From assembly GCF_041248615.1 (NCBI RefSeq), contig NZ_CP158426.1: a DNA stretch of 64,000 nucleotides. One strand, written 5' to 3'. How positions within the stretch are numbered: position 1 is the stretch's first letter; each line of letters starts with the position of its first letter. Shown here piece by piece: positions 22,701-28,700 of this stretch. The position numbers are program-made. This DNA comes from Escherichia coli. Lineage in GTDB: Bacteria; Pseudomonadota; Gammaproteobacteria; Enterobacterales; Enterobacteriaceae.

Positions 22701-25700
22701 ACGACATGCTGGACAAAGCCTGGGGACTGGAGCCGGAAAGCCGTTTAAGCTGCCAGGCGCGCGTTACCGACGAAGATTTAGTGGTCGAAATCCCGCGTTA
22801 CACTATCAACCATGCGCGTGAGCATTAACAGAGGTTAGTATGGGACTTAAGTGGACCGATAGCCGCGAAATTGGCGAAGCACTGTACGATGCGTATCCCG
22901 ATCTTGATCCGAAAACGGTTCGATTCACCGATATGCATCAGTGGATTTGCGATCTGGAAGATTTCGACGACGACCCGCAGGCATCCAACGAGAAAATCCT
23001 CGAAGCGATTTTGTTAGTCTGGCTGGACGAAGCCGAATAATTTCCGCGTCATGCTTCACGCCGCAGATGCGTTGGCTGCGCTCGTTCACCCCAGTCACAT
23101 AGTTATCTATGCTCCTGGGGCTTCACTCACTTGCCGCGTGATTCGGCCTTTTGGCCTCACCCCTTTGGGGCCAGCGCAAGCGCTGTTCAAAACGCAATGC
23201 GTTTTGTCCTGCAACGCGAATCATTTAGCGGAAAAATCCTGGGGCTGCCAACTGGCGGCCCTTTTACAAAGAAGGATAACTAAAATGACAGAAGCGATGA
23301 AGATTACCCTCTCTACCCAACCTGCCGACGCGCGCTGGGGAGAAAAAGCGACTTACAGCATTAATAATGATGGCATTACCCTGCATTTGAACGGGGCAGA
23401 CGATCTGGGGCTGATCCAGCGTGCGGCGCGCAAGATTGACGGTCTGGGCATCAAGCATGTTCAGTTAAGCGGTGAAGACTGGGATGCGGATCGCTGCTGG
23501 GCATTCTGGCAAGGTTACAAAGCCCCGAAAGGCACACGTAAAGTGGAGTGGCCGGATCTGGACGATGCCCAACGGCAGGAACTGGATAACCGCCTGATGA
23601 TCATCGACTGGGTGCGTGACACCATCAACGCACCGGCGGAAGAACTGGGGCCATCGCAACTGGCACAGCGTGCTGTTGATCTGATCAGCAATGTCGCGGG
23701 CGATCGTGTGACTTACCGGATCACCAAAGGCGAAGATCTGCGTGATCAAGGTTATATGGGGCTGCACACGGTCGGACGCGGTTCAGAACGTTCTCCGGTA
23801 TTGCTGGCGCTGGATTACAACCCGACTGGCGATAAAGAAGCGCCAGTGTACGCGTGCCTGGTTGGTAAAGGCATCACCTTTGATTCCGGCGGCTACAGTA
23901 TCAAACAGACCGCATTTATGGACTCGATGAAGTCGGACATGGGCGGCGCGGCAACGGTTACCGGGGCGCTGGCGTTTGCCATTACGCGCGGACTGAACAA
24001 GCGCGTGAAGCTGTTCCTCTGCTGTGCGGATAACCTGATCAGCGGCAACGCGTTCAAACTGGGCGATATTATTACCTATCGCAACGGTAAAAAAGTTGAA
24101 GTGATGAACACTGATGCGGAAGGGCGTCTGGTGCTGGCCGATGGCCTGATTGATGCCAGTGCGCAGAAACCGGAACTGATCATTGATGCGGCGACCCTCA
24201 CCGGGGCGGCGAAAACTGCGCTGGGTAATGATTATCACGCGCTGTTCAGTTTTGACGATGCGCTTGCCGGTCGCTTGCTGGCGAGTGCCGCGCAGGAGAA
24301 TGAACCGTTCTGGCGTCTGCCGCTGGCGGAGTTCCACCGCAGCCAGCTGCCGTCTAACTTTGCCGAACTGAACAATACCGGAAGCGCGGCGTACCCGGCA
24401 GGCGCGAGCACGGCGGCGGGCTTCCTGTCGCACTTTGTTGAGAACTATCAGCAAGGCTGGCTGCATATCGACTGCTCGGCGACTTACCGTAAAGCGCCGG
24501 TTGAACAGTGGTCTGCGGGTGCTACGGGACTTGGTGTGCGCACGATTGCTAATCTGTTAACGGCGTAAACGTCTTATTTGGCCTACAAAATTGCGAAAAT
24601 CCAATAGATTGAGATTCCCTTGTAGGCCTGATAAGCGTAGCGCATCAGGCACTTGTGCCCCGAACGTTGAATGAATTGTGGTTCTTATGTCCGAAACAAA
24701 AAACGAACTTGAAGATCTGCTGGAAAAAGCAGCAACCGAACCGGCGCACCGCCCGGCCTTTTTCCGTACTCTACTGGAATCCACCGTCTGGGTGCCGGGT
24801 ACGGCGGCGCAGGGCGAGGCTGTGGTTGAAGATAGCGCGCTTGATTTACAGCACTGGGAAAAAGAAGACGGCACCAGCGTCATTCCTTTTTTTACCTCGT
24901 TAGAAGCACTTCAACAGGCGGTTGAAGACGAACAGGCATTTGTCGTAATGCCCGTTCGCACATTGTTTGAGATGACCCTTGGCGAAACGCTCTTCCTTAA
25001 TGCCAAACTGCCAACCGGTAAAGAATTTATGCCGCGTGAAATCAGTTTGTTGATTGGTGAAGAAGGAAATCCGCTGAGCAGCCAGGAAGTACTGGAGGGC
25101 GGTGAATCGCTGATATTATCGGAAGTCGCAGAGCCGCCAGCACAAATGATTGATTCACTCACCACCTTATTTAAAACTATTAAGCCGGTGAAGCGTGCTT
25201 TTATTTGTTCAATTAAAGAGAACGAAGAGGCACAGCCTAATTTACTTATTGGCATTGAAGCCGATGGTGATATCGAAGAAATTATTCAGGCGGCGGGAAG
25301 TGTAGCGACCGATACATTACCTGGCGATGAACCCATCGATATTTGTCAGGTGAAAAAAGGGGAAAAAGGAATTAGCCACTTTATTACCGAACATATTGTG
25401 CCATTCTATGAACGTCGCTGGGGTGGTTTTTTGCGTGACTTTAAACAGAACCGGATAATCTAAAATATGCCGCCCCAAAGGGCGGCATTCGGGCTTACCT
25501 GCTGTTCTGAAGGTTGTTAACCACCAGTAAATTGTTGCCGGAGAGACTCCGGTTATTATTTACCTCGGTTAACAGCGCACCAGAAACAATAAGTACGATA
25601 CAAAAGCACCGTATCTTCATTGTGCGGTCCATGCGAAGACCGCATCACGACAGCACCACTGGCGATATTGCCGCGATAGCAAGCGCTGTGAAACACCTGC

Positions 25701-28700
25701 ATTTACGGCCATGGAACATCCTTTCCTTAAGCCAGCGCCCGTTTGCGAGACGGCGGAAAGGGCCGGTGTCGATAATACGCTAAATAAACAATGATTACTC
25801 TCTTTCGCTGTGTAAGTTCACAGAGATATTGCAATTACCTCCGGATAAGTAAGGGGAGATTGCACTATGCAAATGCAGCATCTGATGGTTGGCTATCCTA
25901 AGTACTACCAAACGGCCGATTATGCGTTGAGGCTTTCAGTGATGGCTGATACAGCAACAATGAGAATGAAGGCTCTGCACTTCTGGGATAAACACGGTAT
26001 TTCTGCAGCTTCTGAAGCCTTTGGCGTGTCCTGCCGCACGCTTTACTGGTGGCGTCAGTTACTGAACAAGGGAGGACCTGAGGGGCTAATCCCGCACAGT
26101 AAGGCACCTCTGGTGCGACGAAAAAAGCACTGGCATCCCGATGTGCTGAAAGAGATTCGACGGCTGCGGACAGAGCTGCCGAACCTCGGTAAAGAGCAGA
26201 TTTTTGTTCGCCTGAAGCCCTGGTGCGAACAGCGCTATCTGGCCTGTCCAAGTGTTTCCACCATCGGCAGAATGATCGCTGCCGCACACGATAAAATGCG
26301 AATGATACCTGTGCGTCTGGGCTCGCGGGGGAAGGCACTGCTTGTCAAAAAGCGGTCTGCCAAACCCCGCAGACCAAAGCACTACCGCCCGGTAAAGACA
26401 GGTGAGCTCATTGGGATGGACGCCATTGAGCTCAGAATGGGCGAACTGCGTCGCTATGTCATCACCATGATCGACGAATGCAGCAATTACGCGCTGGCGC
26501 TGGCTGTACCGTCGCTCAACAGTGATATCGTCAATCACTTCTTCAGCCGTGCAGCCCGGCTGTTCCCGGTCGGTATCAGTCAGATAATCACAGATAACGG
26601 AAAAGAGTTCCTGGGAAACTTCAACAAAACGCTGCAGGAAGCCGCTATCAAACACCTCTGGACCTATCCCTACACGCCAAAAATGAACGCTATCTGTGAA
26701 CGTTTTAACCGGACGTTAAGAGAGCAGTTTATTGAATTTAATGAGATTTTACTCTTTGAAGATCTGGCGCTATTTAATCAGAAGCTGGGGGAATATCTGG
26801 TACTGTATAACAGCAAAAGGCCCCATAAGGCGCTCGCACTAATGACGCCCGTGGAATATATTTTAAGAGAGAACAAAAATTGCAATATGTGGTGGACCCA
26901 TACATTCGCTTGACAAAAAGAGAGTTACTGGCGAGTATTGCTTTGCTGTGAAGCACCTGCGTTGCTCCGACAACACAAGTCAACCTGCTGGAAAGGCCGC
27001 GAACCAGACCAGCAATAAAAAACCGCCAAATTCGGCGGTTTTTTATTGCCTGTAAAAAGCTTATTTCAATGGCTCAACCGGTAAATCTGCCCGTGCGCCC
27101 CATTCACTCCATGCGCCGTCGTACAGTTTCACGTTTGGCACATCCAGCGTCGCGAGTGCCAACAAAACCACGGCTGCCGTTACACCAGAACCGCAACTGA
27201 CGATAATAGGTTTGTCATAACTTACGCCGCGACCAAAAAATATCGCATCCAGTTCATCGGTCGTTTTTAGTTCGCCTTCACGTACCAGTTCTGTCCACGG
27301 AACGTTAAACGCGCCGGGAATATGTCCGCGACGTAAACCTGGGCGAGGTTCATCAACTTCTGCGTTAAAACGTGCAGCCGGGCGGGCATCAATAATTTGC
27401 GCCGTATTTTCATGGCTTGCCAATAACACATCGGTGACTTTCACCACGGCTTCAGGATTAAACGTGGCGTTAAACTCTCCTTCCGGCAGCTCTACTGCAC
27501 CTTCTTCTAACAGCAGATCATCGCGCTGCCAGCCTGCAAGTCCACCCCCCAGAATCGACACTTTCTCTACACCAAAGGTGCGCAGCATCCACCATGCTCG
27601 TGGGGCTGAGAAAAGATTACCTTCGTCATAGACAATCAGGTGCTTATCCTGGTTAACGCCTAATTCACGCATCGCCACGGCGAACGTTTCCGGGCGCGGC
27701 AGCATGTGCGGAAGCGGGGAAGTGTGATCAGAAAGCGCTTCGATATCAAAAAACACTGCGCCGGGAATATGTCCATTCAGATACTCCTGAGCAACGTTAC
27801 GATCTTCCTGTCCAGGCGACGCCATGCGGGCATCAATAATCTGAATTTCCGGGTCATCAATATGTTCGGCGAGCCAGTCGGCTCCTACAAACCATGTCGT
27901 GGACATAGGCATCTCCATTTTTGCCGGGGTTAGGCTAAATTGTCGGATGTTTAGTGAAAGGCGACAAGCAAAAGAGGCTGATTTGGCTGTCTGAGCCACA
28001 ATTCTCACTAAAATTCGGATTGTATGGGCGTGATACTGAATTACATAACGTAAATTCTCACGCATAATAATTATTCGACGTTGCTAACGGGCCATTGTGG
28101 CAGGGATGAAAAATGAAAAAGTTACGCGTAGCCGCCTGCATGCTAATGCTGGCGCTGGCAGGGTGCGACAACAACGATAACGCGCCAACAGCGGTGAAAA
28201 AAGATGCGCCTTCTGAAGTTACTAAAGCGGCTTCTTCAGAAAACGTGAGTTCAGCAAAACTTTCCGCGCCGGAGCGACAAAAACTGGCCCAACAGAGTGC
28301 CGGTAAGGCGCTGACATTGCTGGATCTCTCTGAAGTTCAACTTGATGGCGCAGCCACGCTGGTGCTGACGTTCTCCATTCCTCTCGACCCGGATCAGGAT
28401 TTCTCACGCGTTATCCATGTCGTCGATAAGAAAAGCGGCAAAGTGGATGGTGCCTGGGAGCTGTCAGATAATCTTAAAGAGTTGCGTTTACGCCACCTCG
28501 AACCGAAACGTGATTTGATCGTCACTATTGGCAAGGAGGTCAAAGCACTCAACAACGCAACCTTCAGTAAAGATTACGAAAAAACTATAACTACCCGCGA
28601 TATCCAACCCAGCGTCGGTTTTGCCAGCCGTGGCTCGTTGTTACCCGGTAAAGTTATTGAAGGGCTGCCGGTAATGGCGCTCAACGTTAACAATGTCGAT

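Follow-up and report, generated by a model that had tools for sequence, protein, structure and literature searches.

What is the short ryfA-like sequence that lies beyond an insertion sequence (IS), between ryfA and sseA, in Escherichia coli contig NZ_CP158426.1 (assembly GCF_041248615.1)? In the 64,000-nucleotide stretch analysed here—referred to throughout as the window—the genes follow in the order sseB (+ strand), ryfA/timP (−), a transposase open reading frame (ORF; +) and sseA (−), and the original prediction took the DNA to the right of the transposase gene to be the 5′ leader of a second, diverged copy of ryfA. We are highly confident of another answer: that what lies between sseB and sseA is the timP/timR (ryfA/ryfB) locus, a known type I toxin–antitoxin system of enterobacteria, and that a 1096-bp element of the IS481 family interrupts the 76 bp of divergent promoter region within it. 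On the right flank stands a complete timR/ryfB gene, for a divergently transcribed antitoxin small RNA (sRNA), and not a truncated ryfA; the flagged similarity is the antitoxin–toxin pairing of the timPR system, a feature that is in itself ordinary and already explained. The result is therefore corrective, in that a seeming degenerate paralogue turns out to encode the antitoxin of a type I system already described. The segment is chromosomal, and positions 25400–27120 are 100% identical to E. coli NZ_OW967178.

The four strings quoted in support of the similarity are all present at the coordinates given for them; they form two blocks, which fare differently when set against shuffled sequence. 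The first (26927–26961 versus 25658–25701) is real: its ungapped core, 25685–25703 versus 26945–26963, is identical at 17 of 19 positions, a score reached by 4 of 2000 dinucleotide shuffles, and its gapped local score of 32 compares with 19.9 ± 3.1 for the shuffles (reached by 10 of 2000). The second (26990–27000 versus 25755–25766; GGAAAGGCCGC versus GGAAAGGGCCGG) scores 16, less than the best score that chance gives on average (19.9), and is here treated as chance; both of its elements are conserved across genera, yet without co-variation. We also considered this second block as a further RNA contact, between TimR GGAAAGGCCG and nucleotides 1–12 of timP, and rejected it, as in S. enterica diarizonae and C. 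murliniae the two sides do not co-vary. A further likeness, found in Escherichia only, links the spacer and −10 region of the timR promoter (26927–26940; ACTGGCGAGTATTG) with stem-loop 3 of timP (25658–25672; ACTGGCGATATTGCC); the duplication from which timR arose may have left it behind, or it may reflect gene conversion or chance.

The meaning of the first block becomes apparent once strand is taken into account. At both mismatches the timP side carries A and the right-flank side G; as the two genes are transcribed from opposite strands, the corresponding RNAs can form an uninterrupted duplex of 19–20 pairs that includes two G·U pairs. Put another way, a direct repeat in the DNA (25684–25703 / 26944–26963), combined with divergent transcription, makes the 5′ end of TimR complementary to stem-loop 2 of timP: the TimR-binding site in the timP 5′ untranslated region (25684–25703, − strand; mRNA nucleotides 64–83) forms 20 contiguous Watson–Crick or G·U pairs with the timR 5′ seed (26944–26963, + strand). 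The suggestion that the right flank might act as an antisense partner for the intact copy was, on this evidence of a 20-nt TimR/timP pairing, essentially correct. The pairing was located by a search for contiguous pairs; RNAduplex on the full-length RNAs had given a pseudo-duplex of 100 nt that could not be told apart from shuffles and was uninformative.

This pairing is conserved well beyond the window. From 80 SseB-anchored loci of other species, 13 carry a substantial ryfA beside sseB (by blastn or nhmmer), of which 12 were analysed—a small comparative set; one further, contig-truncated ryfA fragment was seen in E. albertii. In all 12 (from Escherichia, Shigella, Salmonella, Citrobacter and Pseudocitrobacter), nucleotides 63–83 of timP mRNA lie in 10–21 contiguous pairs with a partner that begins 78–87 nt past the timP start on the other strand and is followed, 75–103 nt later (94–103 in 11 of the 12), by a T-run. 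With the element removed, 20 nt pair in the window at mRNA nucleotides 64–83, with the partner offset by 77 and the T-run placed at 101. The pairing sequences vary among the 12 loci, and between the copies found in K-12, with complementarity and positions kept; that is, the two sides co-vary. Within Escherichia there are at least three such co-varying specificity variants, with cores GAGACGCGC, GTGAAGCAC and GTGGGGTGC, and the two partners in the window are cognate, both being of the second type. The first two of these variants coincide with the ‘variable region’ that separates ryfA1 from ryfA2. Our data agree with published work: a complementary sequence and a terminator were reported upstream of timP in every enterobacterium examined (PMC7667032), and the Salmonella pairing has been validated by compensatory mutations, TimR repressing TimP translation (PMC7667032).

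The remainder of the right flank has the parts expected of an antitoxin gene. We place timR at 26945–27047 on the + strand, on the basis of pairing, co-variation and fold; its length of ~103 nt fits the ~100-nt RyfB transcripts described as divergent from, and directly upstream of, ryfA (PMC5333039), and the predicted RNA folds at −35.3 kcal/mol (z = −3.9). An alignment of 15 sequences from five genera has four conserved features—a −35 box, a −10 box, a stem-loop and a terminator. The putative promoter (26910–26938) comprises a −35 hexamer TTGACA (26910–26915), a 17-nt spacer and a −10 hexamer GAGTAT (26933–26938), with cTTGAC invariant and GAnTAT conserved at fixed spacing across the alignment; from it we infer the transcription start. 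The stem-loop (26986–27014) is almost invariant (GCTGGAAAGGCCGCGAACCrGACCAGCA), and a terminator hairpin with its U-tract follows (27015–27047), as judged from an inverted repeat and from folding. The same inverted repeat (27012–27049; I2, with gapless 19-nt arms that are 95% complementary) forms a bidirectional terminator common to timR (+) and sseA (−), an A-run and a T-run flanking it on both strands. Our terminator scan missed the timR terminator, the A/T-extended stem probably absorbing the T-tract; the promoter and terminator calls for timR rest instead on conservation and folding. A search of the right flank against Rfam at E ≤ 10 found no ryfA-like or TimR-like family, and returned only terminator-driven, sub-threshold matches to AgrB, IS128 and the rimP leader; the best of these links 26966–27047 with AgrB, the sRNA that serves as antitoxin to dinQ. 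It reaches 32.7 bits where the threshold is 40, and the stem-loop together with the terminator probably accounts for it. What survives of the proposed second ryfA leader is therefore its relatedness to the ryfA leader, through the first block; the rest gives way to a complete gene on the opposite strand, with a promoter, stem-loop and terminator of its own.

The left copy is, as had been recognised, a complete ryfA: the RNA matches Rfam RF00126 at 320.5 bits, over model positions 1–296 of 296. The timP mRNA (formerly the ryfA sRNA) extends in full from a 5′ end at 25766 to 25462 on the − strand, with a terminator at 25467–25488 that was called as a terminator-like site by the scan. It encodes a 41-amino-acid ORF (MKIRCFCIVLIVSGALLTEVNNNRSLSGNNLLVVNNLQNSR; 25495–25620, −; from the ORF list and the RefSeq coding sequence (CDS)), annotated here as a short toxic protein of the inner membrane, whose start codon lies at mRNA nucleotide 147. 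A putative −10 box, TATTAT on the − strand (25772–25777), corresponds to a conserved ATAATA block in the 15-sequence alignment and lies 6–7 nt upstream of the Rfam 5′ end. There is no second RF00126 match; one only is found in the window at the gathering score, and one only within 25300–27300 at E ≤ 10.

By analogy with Salmonella, from which the regulatory mechanism is borrowed, timP mRNA made from the − strand (25766 to 25462) would be translated into the 41-amino-acid membrane toxin, and TimR made from the + strand (~26945 to 27047) would pair at stem-loop 2 and destabilise a pseudoknot between stem-loops 1 and 3 (SL1–SL3), blocking timP translation and hence toxin synthesis. In Salmonella itself, TimR binds SL2 around G76 and disrupts a pseudoknot required for translation (PMC11228461). 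Northern blots have shown TimR in the E. coli strains CFT073 and CH138 (PMC13188913); its continued expression in the present strain is likewise a prediction.

How, then, did a transposase gene come to lie between the two? The element occupies 25809–26904 (+ strand; 1096 bp), as defined by its ends (TGTG…ATACA) and by comparison with an empty site; its inverted repeats are imperfect, ~28 bp long, with an 11-nt perfect core (ATATTGCAATT) at 25826–25836 and 26878–26888, and copies at unrelated sites have the same length and are 97–99% identical. On either side lies a copy of TTCGC (25804–25808 and 26905–26909), identified as a target-site duplication from the empty site and from the junctions of eight loci; duplications of 5 bp are found at 7–8 independent element sites. 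An equivalent parse would have a 6-bp duplication, TTCGCT, and an element starting at 25810; the resulting 1095-bp element was dropped in favour of 1096 bp with 5 bp, the base before the element being T at 27 of 28 sites. The transposase ORF (348 amino acids; 25867–26913, +; from the ORF list) has no stop codon within the element, its TGA (26911–26913) being supplied from outside by the −35 hexamer of timR, TTGACA. At hok sites the ORF extends several codons into the flank, the annotated CDS measuring 1074 nt (L086–L088) versus 1047 nt in the window. The original description of the element as IS481-like appears sound: NCBIfam NF033577 (IS481 family) is clearly the best match, over model positions 2–283 of 284, although its 219 bits fall just short of the curated cutoff of 224; the protein carries the Pfam domains rve, rve_3 and HTH, and RefSeq names the 97–99% identical copies ‘IS481 family transposase’.

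In the IS-free genome NZ_CP195049 (locus L001) the two flanks are contiguous (…ATTACTCTCTTTCGC|TTGACAAAAAGAGAG…; junction CTCTTTCGC|TTGACA) and carry one TTCGC where the window has two; they are contiguous also in a second IS-free locus (L005) and, it appears, in nearly all of 5425 genomes. The contention that a simple insertion into a single-copy locus could not produce the present arrangement is thereby contradicted: contiguous flanks in IS-free genomes, together with TTCGC on both sides of the element, indicate exactly such an insertion. The element came by ordinary transposition with a 5-bp duplication and nothing was deleted; the supposed IS-associated loss of a toxin-encoding part finds no counterpart in the data, the TimP product of IS-carrying NZ_OW967178 being the same as that of IS-free NZ_CP195049 (WP_004974226.1, annotated by RefSeq as TimP), and the window keeping an intact ORF for this hydrophobic peptide. 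The idea that the right flank might be ordinary sseA-proximal spacer is half borne out by the same comparison, in that the flank is present in single-copy strains; it is not, though, unrelated to ryfA, to which it is functionally tied. Insertion at timPR occurs in 13 of 5426 complete E. coli genomes, and in others sampled down the ranking the flanks lie ~540–880 bp apart.

The usual distance between the two inferred transcription starts, which stand back to back, is ~76 bp, and the element has entered this interval at −43 of timP; its right end, with the 5-bp duplication, abuts the −35 hexamer of timR. Both core promoters and both RNAs are intact, and sequence beyond about −40 has been replaced on each side.

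Several points weigh against our identification of the locus as a working timPR system, or at least temper it. The −10 box of timR, GAGTAT, matches the consensus at only 3 of 6 positions, and a strict consensus promoter scan of 25400–27150 called no promoter at all; nor does Rfam hold a TimR family that could provide an independent model match. The ~100-nt TimR transcript from 26945 is, in this strain, predicted from sequence. The DNA replaced upstream of −40 is AT-rich, such that its loss could weaken either promoter and ‘intact’ need not mean ‘unchanged’. Lastly, there is dispute as to whether E. coli makes TimP at all and whether the peptide is toxic there (PMC13188913): its toxicity and its TimR-dependent translational repression have been shown only for Salmonella (PMC7667032, PMC11228461), and are questioned for avian pathogenic E. 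coli (APEC; PMC13188913).

Of the alternatives, the one that survives best retains all of the same parts and disputes only that the insertion is neutral: TimR would be lowered, or timP transcription altered, leaving the toxin partly derepressed in the 13 carriers, or else read-through from the transposase gene would add a TimR-containing antisense RNA. We consider this unlikely. Native sequence upstream of the timR promoter is AT-rich (AAATAAACAATGATTACTCTC) whereas the element end now in its place is more GC-rich (GTGGTGGACCCATACA); the transposase gene and timR are co-directional and the terminator scan found no terminator-like site between them, which makes sense read-through into timR plausible; and deletion of timR is tolerated in Salmonella and APEC, so that derepression would be viable. 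The element also splits a perfect 9-bp inverted repeat (ACTCTCTTT/AAAGAGAGT; 25797–25805 and 26917–26925) that brackets the insertion point. Against this, the element leaves the core −35 and −10 boxes as they were in timP and timR alike; timP is intact in five examined carrier genomes with timP annotated (window/NZ_OW967178, L089, L198–L200, L202); and the inverted repeat, which we had entertained as a conserved operator, is confined to Escherichia types a and b and absent from Salmonella and Citrobacter.

The reading offered by the original prediction—that the right flank represents the 5′ leader of another ryfA paralogue in tandem, stripped of its ORF and terminator by an IS-associated deletion, and hence a degenerate version of the S. 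dysenteriae ryfA1/ryfA2 arrangement—fares far worse, and we regard it as very improbable. It does have precedents. Tandem modules exist in S. dysenteriae (ryfA1/ryfB1/ryfA2/ryfB2; PMC5333039), and E. coli K-12 (L004) has a second, partial one: a 199-bp tandem repeat of 82% identity (1125–1318 and 1447–1643 of that locus), each copy of which comprises the promoter region and timR, with the second copy retaining 17 nt of the timP 5′ end and the promoter ahead of the distal timR. K-12 has, therefore, two copies of timR, and the distal one is the cognate partner, its pairing with timP extending over 20 nt versus 11 nt for the adjacent copy. In one carrier, L089 (NZ_CM130730), the element even lies at the junction of a deletion, with a K-12-type timP promoter region on its left, a K-12 distal-type timR on its right, and the ~320 bp (first timR plus remnant) that separate the two equivalent K-12 target sites missing. 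Loss of the cognate antitoxin in L089 was considered and rejected; L089 keeps the distal timR-b, and it is with this copy that K-12-type timP pairs. What decides the matter for the window is that the IS-free allele of its own lineage has the same flanks, contiguous and with no extra ryfA at the insertion point (L001, L005), the 5-bp duplication being clean; that the right flank aligns to ryfA over the ~20–35-nt pairing segment only, at the 5′ end of an opposite, terminator-bearing and conserved gene; and that a search with the ryfA covariance model at E ≤ 10 brings up no further copy. That the likeness arose by chance, with the right flank a functionless sseA-proximal spacer, as the score of the second block and the modest significance of the first within this one window (p about 0.002–0.005) might suggest, is hardly tenable given a pairing that co-varies at fixed positions in 12 loci and is experimentally validated in Salmonella (PMC7667032), beside a promoter, stem-loop and terminator conserved across genera.

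With the locus identified as timPR and the element as a simple insertion, comparison of the carriers (L089, L201 (NZ_CP027103), L198–L200 and L202) indicates that the same point has been struck more than once. The 13 insertion genomes represent at least three structural contexts, two element variants that are 2.3% apart and two duplications, TTCGC and TTTGC; differences of this kind imply at least two independent insertions at the same timPR point. The variation of the locus itself, with its specificity types in Escherichia and the double timR of K-12, is also worth recording.

Is there something about this point that attracts the element? The element is carried by 1059 complete E. coli genomes, and further copies, 99% identical, adjoin hok genes. 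A metagenome scan with a 27-mer from the left end yielded 108 stretches with 28 distinct left flanks and, with a viral-contig scan using a 25-mer from the right end added, 22 distinct right flanks. Seven of the 28 left flanks place the element 3–16 nt upstream of a start codon, each belonging to a different ORF of the Hok/Gef family (PF01848); at all seven sites the transposase gene is directed away from the toxin gene, and at two of them the Rfam sok model matches directly to the right of the element. On the right (n = 22), positions 1–5, i.e. the duplication, are without consensus; positions 6–11 read T16 T18 G17 A12 C10 A12, 16 of 22 flanks have G at position 27, and positions 29–34 read T13 A15 w a n T15—which is the consensus of a sigma70 promoter whose spacer is 17 nt long and which has G at −14. 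TTG stands at offset 5 in 13 of the 22 flanks, compared with 0–1 at each other offset from 0 to 29, and the −10 pattern is in register in 14; left flanks have no promoter signal (0 of 27). Genes identified downstream of the element encode Sok, TimR, the ldr/rdl antitoxin RdlD, and the sRNA STnc100.

Across these 22 distinct sites, the element appears to sit at the upstream edge of sigma70-type promoters, in the same orientation as the promoter and often at promoters of antitoxin RNAs. We tentatively suggest, with rather more doubt than conviction, that it targets promoter edges: that is, that it places its 5-bp duplication just upstream of a sigma70 −35 box, always co-oriented, and strikingly often at promoters of type I antitoxins or other sRNAs (Sok at seven hok loci, TimR, RdlD, STnc100). 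Survivorship alone cannot account for a single-base register. The element may recognise promoters bound by RNA polymerase or, alternatively, a bare TTGAC motif, with purifying selection thereafter; the combination of motif and selection could mimic recognition of a whole promoter. If the suggestion is right, the position between timP and timR was targeted and not accidental, the core of the antitoxin promoter being spared; at hok loci the toxin ORF would, in addition, be severed from its own promoter. It would also provide a bacterial case of an insertion sequence landing at the edges of promoters, and give a mechanistic reason for recurrent IS insertion at type I toxin–antitoxin loci.

This target preference may be the sole new item in the present analysis; we found no description of the register or of the element in the literature on IS481 with hok or on −35-targeted insertion sequences (ISfinder lying outside the scope of that search). 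Recurrent insertions of IS150 beside hok/sok and ldr loci are, however, already on record (PMC5419217). In those E. coli B evolution experiments a DDE (rve-type) element entered the regulatory DNA of type I toxin–antitoxin loci repeatedly, as here; IS150 differs in belonging to the IS3 family, in that the insertions were laboratory observations for which no fixed promoter register was reported, and in that the authors read them as adaptive inactivation. The element described here abuts the antitoxin promoter precisely at its upstream edge, and neither gene is broken by it at timPR. Two side observations concern other copies of the element. The commonest (L090-type, 41 metagenome stretches) measures 1084–1089 bp by end search, versus 1095–1096 bp, and has no target duplication; and a further locus, L160, shares its left flank with the L090-type and carries rdlD on its right, a pattern suggestive of recombination between element copies.

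Among known systems, the window most resembles timP/timR (ryfA/STnc2070) of Salmonella enterica (Andresen et al. 2020, PMC7667032; Eleftheraki & Holmqvist 2024, PMC11228461), with which it shares the sseB-side neighbourhood, an RF00126-homologous timP RNA, a divergent sRNA whose 5′ end is complementary to SL2, far upstream of the ribosome-binding site, and the conserved stem-loop, terminator and promoter boxes of that sRNA. It differs in its pairing specificity variant (GUGAAGCAC core), in the length of TimP (41 amino acids here versus 38) and in the 1096-bp element between the promoters. Shigella dysenteriae ryfA1/ryfB1 and ryfA2/ryfB2 (Fris et al. 2017, PMC5333039) likewise have a ~100-nt divergent RyfB directly upstream of ryfA, complementary to it over 16–18 nt that overlap the ryfA ‘variable region’; there the modules are two, complete and in tandem, whereas the window has one. 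The same general layout, of adjacent, non-overlapping and divergent toxin and antitoxin genes whose short complementarity takes the form of a direct DNA repeat, is found in tisB/istR-1, shoB/ohsC, zorO/orzO and dinQ/agrB; these have unrelated toxins, and work through mRNA processing or standby sites as opposed to the pseudoknot switch of timP (PMC11228461). Since timR is unannotated in the sampled RefSeq records of E. coli and has no Rfam family, we expect sequence-only readers and pipelines to go on misreading it.

The neighbours of the locus, assigned from the RefSeq annotation of NZ_OW967178 and from the ORF list, are sseB on the left (24678–25463, +) and sseA, encoding 3-mercaptopyruvate sulfurtransferase, on the right (27061–27906, −). 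Elsewhere in the window, further Rfam matches at the gathering score mark an iscRS stability element (17934–18043), the sRNA sroE (39714–39805) and, weakly, AaHKsRNA22 upstream of pepB (23142–23214).

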